Below, piece after piece: positions 21,851 to 45,051 of a stretch of DNA of 55,149 bases. A model generated the notes under the pieces. That model was not told the origin of the DNA and made no database searches. It saw only the letters and a program-made list of their open reading frames with translations. The position numbers were made by a program, and so were the translations under genes. Where the stretch lies: the NCBI GenBank assembly GCA_035479795.1, contig DATIII010000003.1:1-55149 (forward strand), in the 5' to 3' direction. How positions within the stretch are numbered: position 1 is the first letter of the stretch; every line of letters begins with the position of its first letter. This DNA comes from Candidatus Saccharimonadales bacterium. GTDB lineage: Bacteria; Patescibacteriota; Saccharimonadia; UBA4664; SCTI01.

Positions 21851-22423
21851 TTACTGACTTGGAACCAGTACGCTCGTTTTCTGGTGTTTGGTGACACGAG
21901 CACGCTTGGCATCATGCAGCTTCGAAATAAAAGTGTTTACATCCGGTTGCACGCGTTTATGCAGAGTGTCGGCAACTGCCCTCTGGGCCTTCAATAGGGT
22001 CGCGCGATCTTTGCGAGCCTGAATAACCGCGTCTTTTAACCGGGACTTTTCACTAGCGCAGTTCACTGGCTTAGTTTTGTACTGTGCAAAGTGCGCCTTC
22101 TCAACGTCAACCTCTCGGTAAAAGGCGGCGCGGGCGGTCGTATAATCACTTAGGTCCTTTTTGGCTTGAGTCAGATCACCATCTCGCAGCCACTGCGAAG
22201 CATATTCAACCTGTCCGCCGTAGCGGCGATGCACCGCCAGCCAACGAGATTTTTGCGTGTTCTCATACTTTTCTAGCTGGCTGCTGCGATCGTTTATCAA
22301 AGCCGCTGCCTTAATACAGTTGGTCACCGAACTGGCTTTGGCCGCCTGTATTGATCGAGGCAAGACGATGGCGACGCCTAACAGAGCCAAGGCTGCGACC
22401 GTGATTGTAACCTTCAACTTCAA
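21851..22423 (-). CDS. Hypothetical secreted, basic helical protein
   Basis: Signal-like N-terminus, helical/coiled-coil composition; ATGA-coupled to upstream gene. Confidence 0.75.
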   Translation of the reverse strand: MKLKVTITVAALALLGVAIVLPRSIQAAKASSVTNCIKAAALINDRSSQLEKYENTQKSRWLAVHRRYGGQVEYASQWLRDGDLTQAKKDLSDYTTARAAFYREVDVEKAHFAQYKTKPVNCASEKSRLKDAVIQARKDRATLLKAQRAVADTLHKRVQPDVNTFISKLHDAKRARVTKHQKTSVLVPSQ

Positions 22424-24573
22424 GGCTGCCCCTCCTTATCCAGAGCTTCTTTGACATAGTCAGCAGCGGCTCTGGGTTTAGCTGCCGGAGTAGCTGGTGG
22501 TTGAACAGTTGTACCAGAAGCCGGATCAGGCACTGGGCTGGAATTAATAATGGCGGGGGTTAGTTGCGGGATACGACGGGTCTGGCGAAAAATAACCACA
22601 GCTGCCAGTGCTAAACCAGTCAACAATGCCGTGACGCCGATAGTGGCGAGAGTTTTGGTTTTATCAATCTTCACCCCAAGCACTGCTATGGGAGAAGTGT
22701 TTTTAGCCGAGTACTTATAGGCCGCCAAAATCACCGTTTTACCATTCTTGGTCGTCTTTTTTAGTTGCGGCTTGGTCTCTTGCTTTACCTCGTTCCAGTC
22801 GTTCCCGTCGTATTGATAAAGTTTGTTGTCATCACTAAAGCCGCTTAGGTCATCGGTAGCCGAAATGTCTTCGAGGTCACTAACATCAACGTCCAGCTCA
22901 AGGTCAAAATCAAGACTATCTTCAATGTCACCTAACTTATCCTTACATACCAGTTGATAGGTCTCACTGGTAGCTGTCAGGTCTGAGCCCAGGCCGTCAT
23001 GCCCCTTATTGCCGTGTGGCAGGCTGCACGCGTAATCAGTGTTTTGATTGGCTGGCAAGGTAGCCGTTGCTGAACCATCGCTGCTTGAAACTGCTGTCGG
23101 CTGCGTCGAAGAACCCAATACATTTGCATTGAAGACTGGAGTCTTCAACTGAATTGTCACGGCACTGGAAAGATCATCAGCCGATCCTATACCTGTTACC
23201 CGATAATAATAGGTCGTGTCAAAGCTTGTATGACTGTCATCGTAAGTGGTTTCGGAGCCATCTTGGCTGAGAGTTGTCCAATTAGTGCTGTCAGTCGACC
23301 TTTCGACGATGAAACCGAAATTGTTATCTCCGGAATGCCACTGCAAATGAACTGCCCCTGAGTTATCCGTGGTGGCACCCAGATGAGAAACTGGGCTGGG
23401 CGGAGTATAGCTATCTCCGTCGTCTTCTAAATCAAGCAGGCCCAGCCCGTCAAGATCATCAAAAAATCCGGGGTCAAACCCGTCGTCAGTCGTATCAACG
23501 TCCGCTAGATCGCTAGCCGATTCTTGAGTGCCAGCAGCTGGCGAAGTATTGTTCGAGGTCGCGCTGGAACTATTCGACCCTGAACCAGCTGTACCTCCCC
23601 CGCCCGAAGCGCTTGGTCTGTTTGTTGAAGGCCCTCCTCCTCCACTCGCTACCGGTGCAACTTTGTTTAGCCAGATCTGAACCGTGGATTGTCGACCCGC
23701 TAAAACTTTGATAACATCGCCGTCTTCAACCTCGGCGCCATACAGACGGCGATAGGTGTAGCCAGCGGGAGGAACCACTGAAGCCAGTTTGTAGCGCTTC
23801 AAACCCTCAAGGCCGCTGTAGCAATTGGGGAAGGTGGCCTCGGCATCGCTGCCAGTATTGACCGAATGCGGATTGCAATTATGAGCAGCGTCGTTGATCC
23901 CAAACCCGAGGCCTTGAACCGTCGCCGCTACGCCCCCCACCTTCTTGATGCTGCCCCCGTTGTAGTCGTAGCTAATGATTTTTATACTACCGACGTCCTG
24001 ATCTCGCGGCTGAGACGGCTGAGAGCTCGTCTGCTGTTGCTGAGTCGGCTGCGATCCCGAAGTAGTTGGTAGACTGCTGCCAGAACTGCCCGGAGCATCC
24101 TTCTCTAAAATAAAGAATGCGTTGGTAATGGGATCGGTGGCAATCAGACCCACCCAGCGGACATTGACATCTTTATCCTTAGAATCGGCCATATGATAGC
24201 CGGCCGGTACGCTGCTGACCGACACATTGTAAACCCGATGATTGGAGTCGGAGTCTACTGGGCATTCGGTAAACTGAGCATTCCCGGCCGAGTTGGTAAC
24301 ATCATCGGTCCGGGGTGCTGTTTCGCAGGCCCGGTTAAGATGAATCCCAACCCCGGGAAGCCGTTTGGCTTTAAGGTCGGTCCCGACCTTTTCATAGGCT
24401 GTAACCGTCAGGCTGCCATGGCGAGTGCCAGATGCGGCGAAGGTGCTTATTACCCCGATAAGAGCGACTGTTGAAAGCACCAACCCAATAATCGTGGCAT
24501 TGCGCCCATGAAAACCGACCGGTCCTGAGAGTAATCGCGGGCTGACAGTTGACTTCAATTTAGACTTTGCCAT
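22420..24573 (-). CDS. Large surface protein with beta-rich repeats, Ser/Gly and Asp-rich linkers, a fibronectin type III domain and a C-terminal TM
   Basis: N-terminal TM; PSPVSHLGA..VHLQW..GFIVERS..TYDDSHTSFDTTYYYRVTG FN3 pattern; C-terminal hydrophobic helix. Confidence 0.8.
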   Translation of the reverse strand: MAKSKLKSTVSPRLLSGPVGFHGRNATIIGLVLSTVALIGVISTFAASGTRHGSLTVTAYEKVGTDLKAKRLPGVGIHLNRACETAPRTDDVTNSAGNAQFTECPVDSDSNHRVYNVSVSSVPAGYHMADSKDKDVNVRWVGLIATDPITNAFFILEKDAPGSSGSSLPTTSGSQPTQQQQTSSQPSQPRDQDVGSIKIISYDYNGGSIKKVGGVAATVQGLGFGINDAAHNCNPHSVNTGSDAEATFPNCYSGLEGLKRYKLASVVPPAGYTYRRLYGAEVEDGDVIKVLAGRQSTVQIWLNKVAPVASGGGGPSTNRPSASGGGGTAGSGSNSSSATSNNTSPAAGTQESASDLADVDTTDDGFDPGFFDDLDGLGLLDLEDDGDSYTPPSPVSHLGATTDNSGAVHLQWHSGDNNFGFIVERSTDSTNWTTLSQDGSETTYDDSHTSFDTTYYYRVTGIGSADDLSSAVTIQLKTPVFNANVLGSSTQPTAVSSSDGSATATLPANQNTDYACSLPHGNKGHDGLGSDLTATSETYQLVCKDKLGDIEDSLDFDLELDVDVSDLEDISATDDLSGFSDDNKLYQYDGNDWNEVKQETKPQLKKTTKNGKTVILAAYKYSAKNTSPIAVLGVKIDKTKTLATIGVTALLTGLALAAVVIFRQTRRIPQLTPAIINSSPVPDPASGTTVQPPATPAAKPRAAADYVKEALDKEGQP

Positions 24574-25114
24574 CTGCCCCTTCAATCAAATAAGCCGTGG
24601 TGTGCGCACTCTGCCACCATGCAGTCAGACAGGCGACCAAAGCTAACATGGCCGCCACCAGCTTAGACCAGCTCCCGGCGAAACCGGCCGCCGATAAGCT
24701 CAAGCTGGCTGGAACCAGCCAGACAAAAATCACCGTAGTGCTGATCAAAAACGCTGCAATATAACCAGCCTTGCGGGCCCAGCCGCCAGCGGTAACTAAC
24801 TCACCTTCCAGGGTCGGCCGCACTCGCATACCCACCACCATCCGACCTACGGCCGTAAAGGCGTAATAAGACACGGCCACCACCGACACCCAGAAGAGTG
24901 CCAACCCAGCCCAACCCAACCAGGGTCCGTGATTAATACCGGCCACTAGGGCTTTAGAAGCCCGCTGCAATTCTGACTGGCCTATACCCGCACTGCGGGT
25001 AATGAGGTCGAGTAAGGCAATTTGGTTTGAATACACAATCAACAGCACGGTGCCAAAGACGCACATGCCGACCGCCGCCAGTGAAATTCGGGATTTCTGC
25101 AAGATCTCCCACAT
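24560..25114 (-). CDS. Hypothetical membrane protein (about 4 TM)
   Basis: 184-aa hydrophobic ORF heading the three-gene unit. Confidence 0.7.
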   Translation of the reverse strand: MWEILQKSRISLAAVGMCVFGTVLLIVYSNQIALLDLITRSAGIGQSELQRASKALVAGINHGPWLGWAGLALFWVSVVAVSYYAFTAVGRMVVGMRVRPTLEGELVTAGGWARKAGYIAAFLISTTVIFVWLVPASLSLSAAGFAGSWSKLVAAMLALVACLTAWWQSAHTTAYLIEGADGKV

Positions 25115-34918: not shown

Positions 34919-34995
34919 GGGCCATTAGCTCAGTTGGTTAGAGCAGCTGCCTCTTAAGCAGCGTGTCCTGGGTTCGAGTCCCAGATGGCCCTCCA
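34919..34995 (+). tRNA. tRNA-Lys (CTT)
   Basis: GGGCCAT/ATGGCCC acceptor, GCTGC-ctCTTaa-GCAGC arm, GGTTCGAGTCC, CCA. Confidence 0.95.
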
Positions 34996-35161
34996 AGCAG
35001 GTTTCTGACATTTGTCGGGGCTCTGCTTGGAGATAACATTTTAGACGAGAACCCAGACTGCGCGAAGCGAGGGTTCGGTGAATGAGGAGAAGGAAAAAGT
35101 GTTTACATTTTTTCCGCCGACGAAGGAGGTCGTGTAAGCGACAATCCCAGATGGCCCTCCA
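34996..35161 (+). repeat. tRNA-linked ~150-nt element ending in a 19-nt copy of the tRNA-Lys 3' end
   Basis: 35143-35161 AATCCCAGATGGCCCTCCA vs tRNA AGTCCCAGATGGCCCTCCA; body homologous to 44438-44587. Confidence 0.9.
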
Positions 35162-35225
35162 TTGTAATTATAAACTTTTTATGTTATAACTTATTATCCT
35201 TGAAATCGAAGCACTCAGGAGGTGC

Positions 35226-35633
35226 TTGGTGGAGTTTCTTGAAAAGAAGCTGAAGGAAATGCGCAAGCGTCTGGCGGTCCTCACGCCCGCAGTAGACGAG
35301 TCCAAGAGATTGGAGCTCGCAATTGCTGAGCTTGAGGAGATACTCAAGGCCTCAAACAGCTCTACCCGAGCGAAGCAGCCGACTCGCAAAACCAGCAAGG
35401 CAAAACGGCAAGCCCCCAGCGATTCGGGCCGTCCTCGCGGTCGGCCGAAGGGGTCGGGCACAAGGGGCAGGCAGGCACTGCGCCTGGTTCAGAAGCATCC
35501 CGGGATAACCATCCCTGAGCTGGCCAAGAAGATGAAGATCAAGCAGAACTACCTGTACCGGGTGCTCCCCGGTCTCGCGACTGACGGCTTGGTTCGCAAG
35601 GAAGGCACGGGCTGGCACGCCACCGGGTCCTAG
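35226..35633 (+). CDS. Basic DNA-binding protein: coiled coil + AT-hook-like GRPRGRP + winged helix
   Basis: Heptad N-terminus, SGRPRGRPKG, HPGITIPELAKKMKIKQNYLYRVL...GLVRKEG.GW. Confidence 0.8.
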   Translation: MVEFLEKKLKEMRKRLAVLTPAVDESKRLELAIAELEEILKASNSSTRAKQPTRKTSKAKRQAPSDSGRPRGRPKGSGTRGRQALRLVQKHPGITIPELAKKMKIKQNYLYRVLPGLATDGLVRKEGTGWHATGS

Positions 35634-35818
35634 TTCTACAACATCATCGAGGACCTGGAGCTAGCCGGACTCGGTGACTATGTGGCCCAACCCCTTCCGT
35701 AGGGCCACACCATCGCCCGCTAACCCTAGGACGCTCGCCGCCCTCGGGGTTGGCGGGCGTTCTGTATTTTAAGGCGAGCAAGGATCAAGCAGTACCTTGC
35801 TTATGGCACAAACGTAAA

Positions 35819-36469
35819 TTAGCTAACTTCGAGTAAGTAAAAGATGGCTGCAAAGCCGAGAATCAAAAAATAGGCGTAAGCCCAAAGCCCCAAAACGCCG
35901 ATGAGTCCACCCGCCGCGGCGGCCAAAGTGTAGTTATTGACCCCGCTGACTAGAGGCAGAAGAGCTGATATTGCCAGATTGCTGAGAACAGCTAAAACTG
36001 CTGCAATCACCAATGCGCCACCAGTTCTAGCCACTCGTGAGCTAAGCCGCTGATTAAAAGAAGGCTTATTAATATAGGAGGACTGCATCAAAAGGTCATT
36101 GGCGGAGCCGGCAAATGCGTTGACGATTTTTAGATAGATAAGATAAAACACTAGTCCAATTCCAGCCCAAAACAAAACTAGAATTATTTTCTCTGCATAA
36201 GGAACACTACTGAGGTTTGCCAGTAAGTCGGCCCAGCTACGATTAAATTCGACTGATGATATTCCAACCAAGCTAAAAAGAAAAGACTGAATCGAAGCAT
36301 TAAAGGCATAAATGAGAAAAACCACGGTAAGCAGGAAGCTCGCCAGGAATTGGTTTGGGGTGGGGATTATAACTTGGAGGACTTTGCGCAGAGATAGCTC
36401 AGTATTGGTATATGGTATGAACATACGAGAGTCGGTTATGCTTCGATGGTACAAGCAGGGAGAAGACAA
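35819..36469 (-). CDS. Hypothetical membrane protein (about 4 TM)
   Basis: Hydrophobic ORF; true start probably slightly internal. Confidence 0.7.
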   Translation of the reverse strand: MSSPCLYHRSITDSRMFIPYTNTELSLRKVLQVIIPTPNQFLASFLLTVVFLIYAFNASIQSFLFSLVGISSVEFNRSWADLLANLSSVPYAEKIILVLFWAGIGLVFYLIYLKIVNAFAGSANDLLMQSSYINKPSFNQRLSSRVARTGGALVIAAVLAVLSNLAISALLPLVSGVNNYTLAAAAGGLIGVLGLWAYAYFLILGFAAIFYLLEVS

Positions 36470-36484
36470 CGCAAGGTCGGTACC

Positions 36485-37057
36485 CTAATGATTTTGTCGG
36501 AGTTTTTTACGGTTTATTAAAATAACCATGACCGAATTAGTCACAATCATGGCAATAGAGTGCAGGGTGGTGGCCAGATTGTATGCCTGAAGTGAAAATA
36601 AGATGAGAATGTGACGGATGACGTTCGATCCGTAGAGTATCGGCTTTTCGCTTTTCGGACGATCATAAGTTTTGCGAAGCGTCGGCCCAAAGGCAATCAG
36701 ATCAATAGACACTGCAATGACAACCGAGACGGTTGGGTCCCGACTGATCGCCCATGGAATCAACCCAAGTAGGGCAGTAATCAAAAAATAGACATCGGAT
36801 TTCTTAACATACTTAAAGCCGTACTGGAGCGAGAAAATAAAGATAATAAAGGTAAAGACCTCAGAGGCGGCGATTGGCAGTATTCCAATCCCCGCGCCTT
36901 TGGCCAGCGAGCCAAAAAGCACGGTGGCGGACACGATCGACCAAACTAGCCAGGTAAACGGATGGGGCTTAACCCTTCTCGCAAACGCATCCACGAGATA
37001 TGGAATATTACCAATCAGGGCAAAAACTGTAGCCAGGTAGGCGGCGTTGGCTTTCAT
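36485..37057 (-). CDS. Hypothetical multi-TM membrane protein
   Basis: IPYL..., KPHPFTWLVW, FGPTLRKTY.RP.SE; 6-7 hydrophobic segments. Confidence 0.78.
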   Translation of the reverse strand: MKANAAYLATVFALIGNIPYLVDAFARRVKPHPFTWLVWSIVSATVLFGSLAKGAGIGILPIAASEVFTFIIFIFSLQYGFKYVKKSDVYFLITALLGLIPWAISRDPTVSVVIAVSIDLIAFGPTLRKTYDRPKSEKPILYGSNVIRHILILFSLQAYNLATTLHSIAMIVTNSVMVILINRKKLRQNH

Positions 37058-37119
37058 ATCTAACTAATTCGCCGTTGCCAGCTGCTCACGAGAACAGCAG
37101 CAGCCGGTGCGGGTATTTT

Positions 37120-37482
37120 TTAGGCACCGAGTTCATCAATTACCTGGCTGAGGTCTTGAGGATTAATTTTGGCTTTTACCAAATAACGATCAACCCCAAG
37201 TTTGGCCGCCTCATCCACAATCCTCGGGGTATCAAAGTTGCTTATGACAATCACCTTGGTTTTCGGCAGCCATTTCTTTAGCTCAAGTTCCTTAAGCATA
37301 TCGAGTCCGGAAGTACCCCGAAGCAGCATGTCGAGTAGGATTACCTGGGGCTTGGTTCGCTTAATCTTTTCCAATGCTTCCTCAGCAGTTGCCGCCGAGG
37401 TAACCTCATACCCTTGCTTACCCAAGGCATAGGCGTAGGTCAGGTTAATGTTTGGCTCGTCTTCGACAATCAAGACCTTCAT
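37120..37482 (-). CDS. Stand-alone response regulator receiver protein
   Basis: VLIVEDE, LLDMLL, ISNF, YLVKA. Confidence 0.9.
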   Translation of the reverse strand: MKVLIVEDEPNINLTYAYALGKQGYEVTSAATAEEALEKIKRTKPQVILLDMLLRGTSGLDMLKELELKKWLPKTKVIVISNFDTPRIVDEAAKLGVDRYLVKAKINPQDLSQVIDELGA

Positions 37483-37547
37483 TGCCCAAATTATATCATC
37501 ACAGCATTATCGTGTTAGGATTAACATAAGAACTAGGTGGCAACCGC

Positions 37548-37916
37548 ATGTCAAAAATACTCATAATCGACGATGATTACACGATCGCAGAGGCTTACAA
37601 AATAGCGTTTGAATCGAATGGGCACGAGGTTTCAGTGGCGCCTGAAGGCAAAACTGGCCTGGGTGTCGCCAACAGCCACCACTTCGACGTCATTTTACTC
37701 GATATGCTGATGCCCTACATGGGCGGTGTAGACTTTTTGGTGGATTATCAAGGCCCGGTCAAGCATCCTGATACCAAAATTATTGTCCTAACCAACAGCC
37801 TGGTACCGGCTAAGAGTGAAGAAAAGGTAAAAAGGCTAGGCGCCTCCGATTATCTCCAGAAATCCAGCCTAACACCCCAAAAAGTGGTTGGCATTGTGGA
37901 AGCCCTGCTGAAGTAA
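37548..37916 (+). CDS. Stand-alone response regulator receiver protein
   Basis: ILIIDDD, LLDMLMP, VLTN, YLQKS. Confidence 0.9.
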   Translation: MSKILIIDDDYTIAEAYKIAFESNGHEVSVAPEGKTGLGVANSHHFDVILLDMLMPYMGGVDFLVDYQGPVKHPDTKIIVLTNSLVPAKSEEKVKRLGASDYLQKSSLTPQKVVGIVEALLK

Positions 37917-37957
37917 AGGGTTTGACTCAGGCGATCAAGCATTAGCATAATACATAT

Positions 37958-39220
37958 ATGGTAGCGCCGTTTTTAAATCGCGATAATCCGGAGCAAATCC
38001 GTAAACGATTGCTGCTGCATGTCCGCGTGCGCTGGGCAGTTTTAACCGCCCTTATCGGTATTGGTACTGGCTACCAGCTGTCCGGTGGTGATATTGAAAT
38101 CAATCGCGGCACGCCGCTAGATATAATCATCCTGATCGTATCCGTTAACATCATAATCTGGGCAGCCGTTCGATACATCCATTCAGCATCGATTCTGCGA
38201 ATTATGACCCTGCTCCAGATTACCTTTGATCTAGCCGTATTTAGCGTAGCCACCTATATAACTGACGGGCCGGCCAGCCCAGCCGTCATCCTCTATTGCA
38301 TCCCGATTGTCATCTCCAGTGCACTGCTTGACGCCGCAGCGGTTTACTTTACCGCTATCACCAGCACCGCCTTTTACGCCCTGGTGTTGTGGCTGACCCA
38401 GATTGCCAGCGGTCGAAGCGACTGGCCCTATACCTACACTTCACAGATCATTTTCTTTGGCCTGGTTTTTGTGATTATGGCCTATGTGGCCGAGTTTCTT
38501 GGTAATCTTCGGCGAAATGAAGAGGGAGAGCGGGTACAGCTCGAAATGGTTTCACTGGCCACTCACCAGCTGCGAACGCCGGCTACGGCTGTCAAAGGCT
38601 TCCTATCCCTACTCCAGGATGGCGATATGGGAAAGCTCAACGCCGATCAACGCGATTTTATCCACCGAGCCTACGAGGAGAATGAAATGGAGTTACGACT
38701 CATCGGCAATATGCTGGATGTAGCCCACCTAGATCTTCAGCAGCTTAATTTCCATCCAGAGCAAGTCGACCTCCGCGCCATGATCGTGAGCCTGGCCGAA
38801 GAGCACAAACTGACGTCCACCAAGCGGAAGCAGACCCTGATTTTAAATATTCCGGAAAGTCCGGTGATATACCGATGTGATGAGCAGCTTCTTCGCATGG
38901 CCATGGACAATCTAGTGAGTAATGCTGTGAAATACGGTACGCCTACCGGAAACGTTAAAATTGGCCTCCGTGAGCTAACGCATAAAATCGTCATTACGAT
39001 TGAAGACAATGGGATTGGCATCGCGCGGGGCGACCAGCGCAAGCTGTTCAAACGCTTTTCGAGAGTGGGTAGCGATTCTAGCTCTCAAGTTGAAGGAGCT
39101 GGGTTGGGTTTGTATCTGGTAAAGAAGATCATGTCGATCCACGATAGTAAAATTGATGTGGTCTCATACCCTGGTGAGGGGTCGATATTTACGATAGAAT
39201 TGCCTAAAAGGAAACCCTAA
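37958..39220 (+). CDS. Membrane-bound sensor histidine kinase
   Basis: About five N-terminal TM; ATHQLRTP, NLVSNAVKY, DNGIGI, GAGLGLY. Confidence 0.92.
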   Translation: MVAPFLNRDNPEQIRKRLLLHVRVRWAVLTALIGIGTGYQLSGGDIEINRGTPLDIIILIVSVNIIIWAAVRYIHSASILRIMTLLQITFDLAVFSVATYITDGPASPAVILYCIPIVISSALLDAAAVYFTAITSTAFYALVLWLTQIASGRSDWPYTYTSQIIFFGLVFVIMAYVAEFLGNLRRNEEGERVQLEMVSLATHQLRTPATAVKGFLSLLQDGDMGKLNADQRDFIHRAYEENEMELRLIGNMLDVAHLDLQQLNFHPEQVDLRAMIVSLAEEHKLTSTKRKQTLILNIPESPVIYRCDEQLLRMAMDNLVSNAVKYGTPTGNVKIGLRELTHKIVITIEDNGIGIARGDQRKLFKRFSRVGSDSSSQVEGAGLGLYLVKKIMSIHDSKIDVVSYPGEGSIFTIELPKRKP

Positions 39221-39594
39221 TGGCTAAAGTCCTGGTCGTCGAAGATTACGCCAGTTTACAAAAAATATACAAAACCGCCCTGGCCATGCAAGGTCACGTT
39301 GTCGATGTAGCTAACAACGGCGATGAGGCCTTAGACTACACGGGCAAGAAGGAGTACGATGTCATCTTGCTCGACATGCTGATGCCCCAAACTGATGGCC
39401 TGAGCTTTTTGAAAATCTTTAGCGTCCGACACCGTGATGCTAAAACCAAAATCATTGCCTTTAGCAACCTGACTACCAGCGAGCTGGCTAGTGAGGCCCG
39501 CGAGCTAGGTGTTTCTAAATACCTAGCCAAACCGGCGCTGACCCCTAAGCAGGTCGCCGCCGAAATTGACGCAGTTTTAAAAGACTCTAACTAG
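39220..39594 (+). CDS. Stand-alone response regulator receiver protein
   Basis: VLVVED, LLDMLMP, FSN, YLAKP. Confidence 0.9.
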   Translation: MAKVLVVEDYASLQKIYKTALAMQGHVVDVANNGDEALDYTGKKEYDVILLDMLMPQTDGLSFLKIFSVRHRDAKTKIIAFSNLTTSELASEARELGVSKYLAKPALTPKQVAAEIDAVLKDSN

Positions 39595-44280: not shown

Positions 44281-44330
44281 ACCTACATCATAACAAAAAC
44301 GGCCTCTCGACCGTTTAAGCATAAGTACTA

Positions 44331-44408
44331 TGGGGCGAGATATGGGGCTTGAACCCACGACCTCCGGTACCACAAACCGGCGCTCTAACCAACTGAGCTA
44401 ATCTCGCC
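44331..44408 (-). tRNA. tRNA-His (GTG) with encoded G-1
   Basis: G-GCGAGAT/ATCTCGC-C-CCA, CCGGT-ttGTGgt-ACCGG arm. Confidence 0.96.
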
Positions 44409-44418
44409 AAGTTTTCAA

Positions 44419-44587
44419 TGGTGCCCCTGGTAGTATTGTGGCTCCCGCCACCTCCTTCTTTGTCGAAAAATATGCAAACACATTTTTCTCCGCCTCATGC
44501 ACCGAACCAAATTGCTTGCGCAATTTACGGCTCTCATCCGGCCTGGTGGCCAGGAAATACGTCCGACTTCGAGTCAGCCGCATTTCC
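44419..44587 (-). repeat. tRNA-linked ~150-nt element ending in a 19-nt copy of the tRNA-Arg(TCT) 3' end
   Basis: Minus strand AATACTACCAGGGGCACCA vs tRNA AATCCTACCGGGGGCACCA (17/19); body homologous to 34996-35142. Confidence 0.88.
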
Positions 44588-44664
44588 TGGTGCCCCCGGT
44601 AGGATTCGAACCTACGACCTTAGGCTTAGAAGTCCTCTGCTCTATCCAGCTGAGCTACAGGGGC
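44588..44664 (-). tRNA. tRNA-Arg (TCT)
   Basis: GCCCCTG/CGGGGGC acceptor, loop ctTCTaa, GGTTCGAATCC, CCA; anticodon stem imperfect. Confidence 0.9.
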
Positions 44665-44667
44665 CAA

Positions 44668-44742
44668 TGGAGCGGGCAGCGGGAATTGAACCCGCGTCTT
44701 CAGCTTGGAAGGCTGACATAATAGCCACTATACGATGCCCGC
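44668..44742 (-). tRNA. tRNA-Gly (TCC)
   Basis: GCGGGCA/TGCCCGC acceptor, TCAGC-ctTCCaa-GCTGA arm, CCA. Confidence 0.96.
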
Positions 44743-44747
44743 ATTCT

Positions 44748-44824
44748 TGGTCGGGGTGAAAGGACTCGAACCTTCGACCTCCTGCTCCCAAAGCAGGCGC
44801 GCTAGCCAACTGCGCCACACCCCG
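44748..44824 (-). tRNA. tRNA-Pro (TGG)
   Basis: CGGGGTG/CACCCCG acceptor, CCTGC-ttTGGga-GCAGG arm, CCA. Confidence 0.96.
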
Positions 44825-45051
44825 GCGTAGAACCTCGCAATTATATCTGAATTACTCCGAGAAATAAAGAAGTTATGCCACCGATAGTTTTACTATATAT
44901 CAATGCGCAAACTAATGTGTATATTATTCGGCCGGGTTGCGTTTCTTGTTTCGTTTAAAAATAGCCAGTTTGTAGCCATCTGGGTCGCGGACTACGAACT
45001 CGCGGTTGCTGGGTACTCCGTGGTAAAATCTTGGCGTAATTATAAGGAGAA

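Follow-up and report, generated by a model that had tools for sequence, protein, structure and literature searches.

What kind of genetic unit lies directly behind a tRNA gene and ends in a second copy of that gene's own 3′ end? The question is raised by a 55,149-nt stretch of a Saccharimonadia genome from the candidate phyla radiation (GCA_035479795.1, contig DATIII010000003.1; hereafter the window), in which two homologous elements follow the genes for tRNA-Lys(CTT) and tRNA-Arg(TCT) and each closes with a copy of the end of the tRNA before it. With moderate confidence, we interpret these elements as structured RNA cassettes that are insertion-polymorphic, co-transcribed with their tRNAs and under selection, of the kind represented by the RtT repeats of Escherichia coli. 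A preliminary description made from the letters of the window had delimited both elements, and its coordinates, lengths and identity counts all proved correct; it had also named RtT as a precedent, a comparison that stands but was understated, since the whole layout and apparently an ordered set of motifs are shared. For over 40 years RtT has stood alone at the E. coli tyrT locus as an orphan, with no agreement on its origin or function; the same layout behind three tRNAs in the candidate phyla radiation suggests that it is no isolated case and that tRNA-trailer RNA cassettes form a general class.

The bodies of the Lys and Arg elements are colinear over their full length, as had been proposed, and their global alignment scores 10.7 standard deviations above 1000 shuffles, none of which came near it. 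A profile hidden Markov model built from the copies matches only these copies and their relatives (E = 1e-45 to 1e-47) and finds nothing in the window beyond the two. Across the family, which comprises four full copies and one partial copy from three or four genomes, the module measures 145-170 nt, lies directly behind the tRNA CCA and ends in AAU followed by a 16-nt copy of the tRNA end. This tail follows its host: at least three tRNAs carry the element (Lys-CTT, Arg-TCT and Asn-GTT), the tail is the matching one each time, and 14-16 of its 16 positions are identical to the end of its own tRNA. The duplicate of positions 61-76 spans the 3′ strand of the T stem, the 3′ strand of the acceptor stem, the discriminator and CCA; the Lys tail is perfect (16/16, or 18/19 when AAT is compared with the AGT of the tRNA), and the Arg tail is identical to tRNA-Arg positions 61-76 at 14/16 (17/19 with AAT). 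The Asn host belongs to a soil metagenome-assembled genome (a 466-kb contig, locus L004), where a pair of elements stands in tandem: tRNA-Asn is followed by the first ~88 nt of the body, ~620 nt with a GAF-domain gene, the 16-mer CCCAGATGGGGAGCCA, a full body, AAT and the tail CCTGCCGCCAGAGCCA, which matches the tRNA-Asn end at 15/16 positions. The lone 16-mer (L004:3502-3517) corresponds to positions 1-9 of the tRNA-Lys tail joined to positions 10-16 of the tRNA-Asn tail of the same genome; it hints at recombination between tails, though it could also be the genuine end of an unseen tRNA. A relative with ~82-90% protein identity (locus L031) has the element at the orthologous place, in the order Pro-Gly-Arg(TCT)-element-His, with a 16/16 tail. 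The family thus extends to a third tRNA and to other genomes.

Corresponding loci in relatives are in several cases empty or differently filled. Locus L040 (81% RNase Y identity) contains the same four-tRNA cluster with an Arg-His spacer of 12 nt (TTAACATTTAT...), and compared with it the Arg insertion in the window is exactly body, AAT and tail; the tRNA-Lys(CTT) site is empty in L031 and L035. In L036, tRNA-Lys(CTT) is instead followed by an unrelated 679-nt cassette (L036:12829-13507), which starts with a promoter-like, near-consensus TTGTAT-17-TATAAT, contains an open reading frame (ORF) of 153 aa that is G+C-rich in an AT-richer genome and has no Pfam match, and closes with 12 nt copied from the tRNA-Lys end; next to it stands TTGTAATTATA, a second copy of the promoter-like flank and the one found behind the Lys tail of the window. 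This cassette has the look of captured foreign DNA, whose source may have been a high-GC host. In L038, a locus of the L004 genome, the Arg-His spacer is taken up by an unrelated insert of 124 nt (L038:13600-13723) that folds well (z = -4) and has the end CCACCA, and L031 carries between tRNA-Arg(TCG) and tRNA-Lys a 57-nt insert (L031:5960-6017, minus strand) bounded by the 15-nt direct repeat GGGCGCGCCAAATGA, composed of the last 10 nt of tRNA-Arg(TCG) and 5 nt of flank, where the window has only AGTAC. These empty and otherwise filled sites indicate that the element is a discrete, insertion-polymorphic unit, and that tRNA 3′ ends serve this clade as general hot spots of insertion, with inserts bounded by copies of tRNA ends. 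The earlier proposal of a tRNA-targeting mobile element with relaxed specificity agrees with the three tRNAs and with the polymorphism of inserted and empty sites (L040, L031, L035), but no mobility enzyme or intermediate was found.

The last hairpin of the 124-nt insert of L038 has 17/19 nt in common with the P1 hairpin of the L004 elements, and in the same locus an opposite-strand methyltransferase gene (L038:12933-13481) between tRNA-Gly and tRNA-Arg splits the cluster. Variation at tRNA position 67 (A67 in L038; G67 in L040, L031 and the window) was considered as an indicator of origin, setting the distal copy as original tRNA end against target duplication, and was discarded, as both scenarios cost two or three changes.

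The Arg copy lies, as first described, inside a Pro-Gly-Arg-His tRNA cluster identified with ARAGORN, and its suggested co-transcription was strengthened by the signals around it. A single promoter-like site precedes tRNA-Pro, a single terminator-like hairpin follows tRNA-His, and no promoter or terminator was called inside the element on the cluster strand; because of this arrangement the Arg element almost certainly belongs to a polycistronic tRNA precursor. Only a 10-nt spacer separates its tail from tRNA-His. The claim that the Arg duplicate pairs better with the 5′ acceptor strand than the gene's own 3′ strand held in one respect: CAGGGGC of the tail with GCCCCTG gives a T6-A67 pair, versus T6.G67 for the gene itself. 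The tail also has A where the tRNA has the conserved C61, however, and cannot be taken simply as an improved 3′ half of the tRNA.

Several lines of evidence point to a structured RNA. The copies have folding z-scores against shuffles of -2.6, -5.1, -2.3 and -7.9, and, owing to the G.U pairs in the stems, the sense strand, that of the tRNA, exceeds the antisense strand in stability by 7-25 kcal/mol. The first hairpin, P1, follows the CCA directly and forms a stem of 12-15 bp in all five copies, although its sequence is almost wholly different from one host tRNA (Lys, Arg or Asn) to another; for the two window copies the base of P1 is predicted to extend into the tRNA, giving a duplex of ~18 bp around the tRNA 3′ end. 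P1 to P4 are separated by purine-rich linkers that include a perfect Shine-Dalgarno sequence, AAGGAGGU, with no ORF behind it, and the Shine-Dalgarno-like block GACGAAGGAGGT is identical in the four full copies. When these four are aligned, 92% of cells in P2-P4 pair, versus 39-56% with partners slid, and four pairs show double-sided changes versus 0-1 in the slid controls; coming from four sequences, these statistics are supportive, not conclusive. A small protein gene was rejected for lack of a conserved reading frame, because in the L004 copy the blocks, conserved as they are at the nucleotide level, fall out of frame with one another through a length difference of 7 nt. A hammerhead-like reading of GAUGAG was also set aside, the core having no GAAA half and no Rfam ribozyme matching.

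Constraint on the element is evident from the Arg copies of the window and L031, which are 85% identical overall and more so outside a replaced linker. Third codon positions of the flanking ABC transporter genes are 39-42% identical between the same two loci, and hence near randomised, and the intergenic DNA past tRNA-His does not align. Differences between the two Arg copies fall in loops or linkers, or else keep a pair, as in the change of a P3 A-U to the G-C of the L031 orthologue, of a P2 G.U to A-U and of a P1 G.A mismatch to U.G. Judging from this pattern, both the structure and the tRNA-matching tail appear to be selected, whether by the host or by the element itself. The positions of all features are collected in Table 1.

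Table 1. Features of the Lys and Arg elements and their surroundings, in window coordinates.
Feature	Position	Strand	Basis
tRNA-Lys(CTT), host gene of copy 1	34919-34995	+	ARAGORN; Rfam tRNA, 69.6 bits
Duplicated source, last 16 nt of tRNA-Lys	34980-34995	+	direct repeat D1
Lys body, 147 nt, gapless behind the tRNA	34996-35142	+	
Lys P1 hairpin, 13 bp including 4 G.U pairs	34996-35027	+	fold; inverted repeat I2, 10/10 complementary
Lys P1 with base, tRNA CTCCA paired to TGGAG	34991-35032	+	fold
Lys motif GACGAGAA, then P2, then conserved block	35044-35087	+	
Lys P2 hairpin, GAACCC...GGGTTC	35049-35076	+	fold
Lys conserved block GGTTCGGTGAATGAGG, resembling half a T arm	35072-35087	+	
Lys P3 hairpin, GGAAAAAGTG / CATTTTTTCC	35092-35115	+	fold; inverted repeat I3
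Lys block GACGAAGGAGGT, perfect Shine-Dalgarno-like, overlapping P4	35119-35142	+	
Lys P4 hairpin, GTCGTGTAAGCGAC	35129-35142	+	
AAT before Lys tail	35143-35145	+	
Lys tail CCCAGATGGCCCTCCA, copy of tRNA-Lys positions 61-76	35146-35161	+	
Flank behind Lys tail, promoter-like TTGTAA-17 nt-TATAAC	35162-35190	+	sequence
tRNA-Arg(TCT), host gene of copy 2, third of Pro-Gly-Arg-element-His	44588-44664	-	ARAGORN, Rfam
Arg body, 150 nt	44587-44438	-	
Arg P1 hairpin, 15 bp	44553-44587	-	fold; inverted repeat I1
Arg P1 with base, tRNA CCA paired to TGG	44550-44590	-	fold
Arg series: small hairpin CTGGCC..GGCCGG, motif GGATGAGA, P2, block GGTTCGGTGCATGAGG	44493-44553	-	
Arg P2 hairpin GAGCC..GGTTC, inner 7-bp stem closed by GCAA loop	within 44493-44553	-	fold
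Arg P3 hairpin	44465-44488	-	fold; inverted repeat I2
Arg block AAAGAAGGAGGT, overlapping P4 hairpin GTGGCGGGAGCCAC	44438-44461	-	
AAT before Arg tail	44437-44435	-	
Arg tail ACTACCAGGGGCACCA	44434-44419	-	
Transcription unit around copy 2: Pro, Gly, Arg, element, His	44297-44921	-	
Promoter-like site ahead of tRNA-Pro	44921-44892	-	
Terminator-like hairpin and T run just past tRNA-His	44316-44297	-	

RtT (rttR; RF00391) comprises the 178-bp repeats of the E. coli tyrT/tyrV locus and reportedly arises by processing of the tyrT transcript. An involvement in the stringent response has been suggested for it and is unproven (10.1101/2024.07.17.603846). As a reference we used the 1.7-kb tyrT-tyrV locus of E. 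coli K-12, whose four RtT units score 133-138 bits with RF00391 (gathering threshold 45 bits). RtT and the window family alike follow a tRNA gene immediately and share its transcription unit, and the E. coli units, ~160 nt each, stand directly behind tRNA-Tyr or the preceding unit and end in TAAT followed by CCTTCCCCCACCACCA (tRNA-Tyr positions 61-76), which is the same rule of AAT plus 16 nt. The order of motifs appears common to both, namely GGATGAGAAcC, a short hairpin, GGTTCGa, a purine-rich linker, a central hairpin, CGAAGG and AAT, and so is the spacing: the central hairpin ends 44 nt past the start of GGTTCG, CGAAGG comes 3-5 nt on, and AAT ~23-27 nt later. MAFFT likewise aligned RtT and window-family sequences colinearly. 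The two differ in that RtT serves one tRNA (Tyr) as tandem repeats, whereas the window family is single-copy in the window and spread over three tRNAs, and in that the window family has the long P1 hairpin enclosing the tRNA CCA and belongs to a candidate-phyla-radiation lineage. A scan of the window with Rfam gave no family at threshold for the element and no RtT match at the gathering threshold, and Rfam models (including ribozymes, tmRNA, YrlA and HEARO, the family of IscB-type guide scaffolds) returned tRNA-driven noise only on both element regions; the element is thus without an Rfam entry, yet it is a variant of the obscure RtT layout, and its novelty is lowered accordingly.

A number of results weigh against this interpretation, most of them against the kinship with RtT. 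A covariance model built from the four Saccharimonadia copies only (R1) finds the four RtT units in exact register at 11.2, 9.5, 6.6 and 6.5 bits, but these scores amount to rough E values of 0.004-0.13 in 1.7 kb, tRNA genes alone reach 6-8 bits through the tail, and scores of similar size arise by chance in 198 kb. Nothing was found when the window family was searched against RtT with nhmmer, pairwise z-scores between the two (-0.6 to 2.8) are within noise, and RF00391 gave no match on either element region of the window even at E<=10. In RtT, moreover, the first 7-8 bases of the tail pair in the Rfam consensus with an upstream purine tract, GGGGAAGG, so that the unit resembles a tRNA-Tyr acceptor/T minihelix whose T loop is greatly expanded, and a duplex test revealed no counterpart of this helix in the window family: in E. 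coli the real tail is equalled in pairing by only 3-5% of shuffled tails, versus 10-74% in the Saccharimonadia copies, where swapped tails do equally well. For this reason the Saccharimonadia tail appears to be free of pairing with the body, and body-tail pairing, either as an RtT-type minihelix or as a T-box-like UGGN:NCCA contact, was rejected, its register also differing from copy to copy. Homology to RtT is therefore suggestive only and membership of that family unproven; we class the element with RtT by its way of working and its architecture, save for one defining feature. Beyond the comparison with RtT, covariation statistics are thin with four full copies and one partial copy, the Asn copies have a T run behind P1 and a collapsed P2 and may terminate early or be decaying, and part of the identity between the window and L031 could stem from recent horizontal spread instead of selection at the level of the host. 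Lastly, release as a discrete RNA, the ends of that RNA and its function are all matters that we infer from sequence.

If the elements are RNA cassettes of the RtT kind, the module would be transcribed together with the tRNA and freed by the cuts that mature neighbouring tRNA ends, possibly assisted by the duplex of P1. This would leave an RNA of ~165 nt whose 3′ end, free and unpaired, has the sequence of the tRNA's own, and which carries the perfect Shine-Dalgarno sequence. Such an RNA would probably act on the tRNA-maturation or translation machinery, as has been put forward for RtT without agreement, the tRNA-end enzymes or the 30S subunit being the most plausible partners, a choice that is guesswork. 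The CCA-ending RNA family offered in the preliminary description fits the sense-strand fold, the compensatory changes, the conservation and the predicted co-transcription, and is unproved. The 16-nt repeat would then be the footprint of the cassette's entry, as a target duplication or an att-type identity block, through an enzyme encoded elsewhere; candidate routes are a 16-nt staggered-cut target duplication, a trans-acting integrase at an att-type block and a guide-dependent process. What makes the family of interest is the tail rule, the empty sites and the strong constraint within a reduced genome, and it offers handles for study in the covariation among distant members, in the match of each tail to its tRNA and in the insertion polymorphism, through which the origin of such units and the role of their RNA can be approached.

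How well does an origin at the level of DNA account for the same observations? A scar or miniature non-autonomous integrative element, comparable to a CIME (what is left of an island that has no integrase but keeps att sites at its ends), with a tyrosine integrase acting in trans, the body as an attP arm and the fold incidental, is the strongest competitor and is in our view possible but unlikely. Repeats of the tRNA 3′ end that begin at the T loop are said to be the classic footprint of tRNA-targeting integrases, and direct repeats from the T loop onward do flank the insert; the exact empty sites in relatives, the unrelated inserts of L036 and L031 that are also bounded by 10-15-nt copies of tRNA ends, and the tandem accretion in L004 with its possibly recombinant tail (Lys 1-9 plus Asn 10-16) fit equally well. 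The absence of an integrase, however, already noted in the preliminary description, was upheld when no integrase, recombinase, transposase, reverse transcriptase, Cas1 or TnpB was found by Pfam scan among 40 ORFs of the window, and the gene lists of related loci also contain no integrase, recombinase or transposase. A double-stranded circle of 163 bp would be an implausible substrate, and protein-binding arms in duplex DNA have no need of strand-specific hairpins, G.U pairs or compensatory changes. Nor does this account predict a single body family on three different tRNA cores, kept inside an essential tRNA operon under strong constraint. Integrase islands and CIMEs thus resemble the element in the direct repeat of the tRNA 3′ end, the variable occupancy and the tandem accretion, and differ from it in that the window element is only ~150 nt long, has no integrase that we could find and carries an RNA-type fold. 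Casposons are Cas1-driven and make a 14-15-bp target duplication at tRNA 3′ ends. They share the long duplication of the tRNA end with the window element, which in contrast has no terminal inverted repeats such as a MITE or casposon-type DNA transposon would carry (none joins the element ends, and only internal hairpins were seen), measures only ~150 nt and came with no detectable Cas1 or polymerase.

A bolder idea, which we regard as decidedly doubtful, is that of a non-autonomous mobile cassette able to settle exactly behind the CCA of essentially any tRNA gene and to take 16 nt of this target as its own 3′ tail. Its transcript would then always bring along a free guide to the insertion site, which a trans-encoded enzyme, RNA-guided or reverse-transcribing, would use for homing or retention, and RtT repeats would be domesticated fossils of such elements. 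Were the tail indeed a homing guide, or a target duplication made by a new enzyme, this would constitute a new way of targeting tRNA genes.

A guide of the omega-RNA type known from TnpB and Cas12, in which a ~150-nt scaffold and a 16-nt guide would steer a trans-acting nuclease, repressor or transposase to the tRNA 3′ end, is improbable. Its attraction lies in the order of scaffold and guide, with 16 nt directly behind a terminal hairpin, in a tail whose pairing with the body is no better than chance and which is kept at 14-16/16 while nearby third codon positions are ~40% identical, and in the different letters ahead of the tail (ACAAT) and of the target (TCGAAT or TCGAGT), as discrimination of self from non-self requires. 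Set against these are the missing proteins, no ORF like TnpB, IscB or Cas12 having been seen in the scanned window or the related loci and no Pfam match to OrfB/TnpB or a Y1 transposase among the 40 window ORFs, and the lack of any Rfam match to known guide scaffolds. The target would also lie just ~150 nt away in an essential single-copy gene, the tail stops exactly at CCA, which is more simply explained by a duplicated tRNA end, and IS200/IS605 elements make no target duplication, unlike the 16-nt direct repeat present here. With omega-RNAs and PATEs (miniature derivatives of IS200/IS605) the element has in common its length of ~150 nt, hairpins close to each end and, behind the scaffold, 16 nt that recur in the flanking DNA; the distances from hairpin to end do not fit, the supposed guide equals sequence on the far side of the element, and neither tnpA nor tnpB was found. 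IS200/IS605 geometry was tried in either orientation and rejected, since it leaves the tRNA-specific tail unexplained and such elements make no duplication.

Duplications of 16-19 nt lie in the typical range for target-primed reverse transcription (LINE/SINE) and are long for DDE transposases. A SINE-like retroposed cassette, produced by target-primed reverse transcription at a nick in the tRNA gene with a staggered second cut that yields the 16-nt duplication, would accordingly explain a repeat within this range, a sense-oriented unit with apparent RNA structure and co-transcription, and a tail re-specified at each tRNA as a target duplication would be. We consider it quite improbable nonetheless: the scanned window ORFs include no reverse transcriptase, neither an A-rich tract nor any other priming signal stands at the 3′ end, a simple target duplication does not account for the foreign tail within the L004 tandem, and no SINE-like target-primed system is known in bacteria. 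Neutral debris of local partial duplications of tRNA 3′ ends, with neither function nor mobility, was already disfavoured and is highly improbable, for although parts of the body resemble tRNA (GGTTCG, half a T arm; GAACCCAG, like a T-stem 3′ strand; GGCCACCAGG, like a tRNA-Arg end) and tRNA spacers are generally labile in this clade, bodies behind three unrelated tRNAs are homologous over their full length, the 85% identity compares with ~40% at neutral sites, and the stems show compensatory changes.

Relatives were sought by DNA pattern in genome, metagenome and viral collections, and further loci were fetched around homologues of flanking proteins. The strict pattern GGTTCGGTGNATGAGG..GAAGGAGG recovered one true relative (L004) and four chance matches among species-representative genomes; a relaxed pattern gave chance matches only in the metagenome and viral collections, a P4 pattern had no match in the viral collection, and blastn against phages and plasmids had none either. 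These collection-scan patterns were too strict, because the L031 orthologue has a perfect palindrome of 20 nt where the search block GGTTCGGTGCATGAGG would be, and the family is probably under-sampled by them.

The bodies contain further resemblances to tRNA. GGCCACCAGG of the Arg body (window 44542-44551) resembles the junction of GGGCACCA with GG, and for CATTTTAGACGAGAACCCAG of the Lys body (within 35037-35056) the complementarity to tRNA-Lys, over its T arm and acceptor 3′ strand, is 75%. Apart from a tandem G.A/A.G at the centre, the motif GAYGAGAACC common to the bodies matches the complement of the universal GGTTCGAATCC. In the L031 orthologue, a perfect 20-nt palindrome, CCTGCCTGCCGGCAGGCAGG (L031:438-457), stands in place of the linker GGTGCAT of the window Arg copy and may be a small inserted hairpin repeat.

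Behind the Lys tail, the promoter-like flank that recurs behind the tRNA-Lys tail copy of L036 precedes a MarR-like ORF (35226-35633). A consensus promoter scan made no call on this flank (35162-35190), because its -10 hexamer ends in C; the flank, with TTATGTTATAA, reads as an extended -10 promoter. A dif/Xer site in the same flank was considered and rejected, as GC skew switches nowhere in the window. The MarR-like gene opens a block (35226-39594) with two membrane proteins, three single-domain response regulators and a histidine kinase, which is missing at the corresponding place in L031, where only an RDD-family gene lies between an amylase gene and tRNA-Lys; the comparison points to a variable region abutting tRNA-Lys.

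Elsewhere the window, which holds eight tRNA genes by ARAGORN and Rfam, carries housekeeping genes identified with Pfam (AlaRS, MnmA, MetRS, PGK, pyruvate kinase, TIM, UvrD/PcrA, RNase Y, YmdB, HU, TsaE and type IV pilus genes). Among homologues of its RNase Y at 70-90% identity, those with a name mostly bear the label Saccharimonadia or Patescibacteria, which places the window in the candidate phyla radiation. A three-gene block on the minus strand (21851-25114; 184, 721 and 190 aa) adjoins tRNA-Glu and has no Pfam matches; its 721-aa product, with a signal- or anchor-like start and low-complexity linkers rich in Ser, Gly and Asp, is probably a cell-surface protein.

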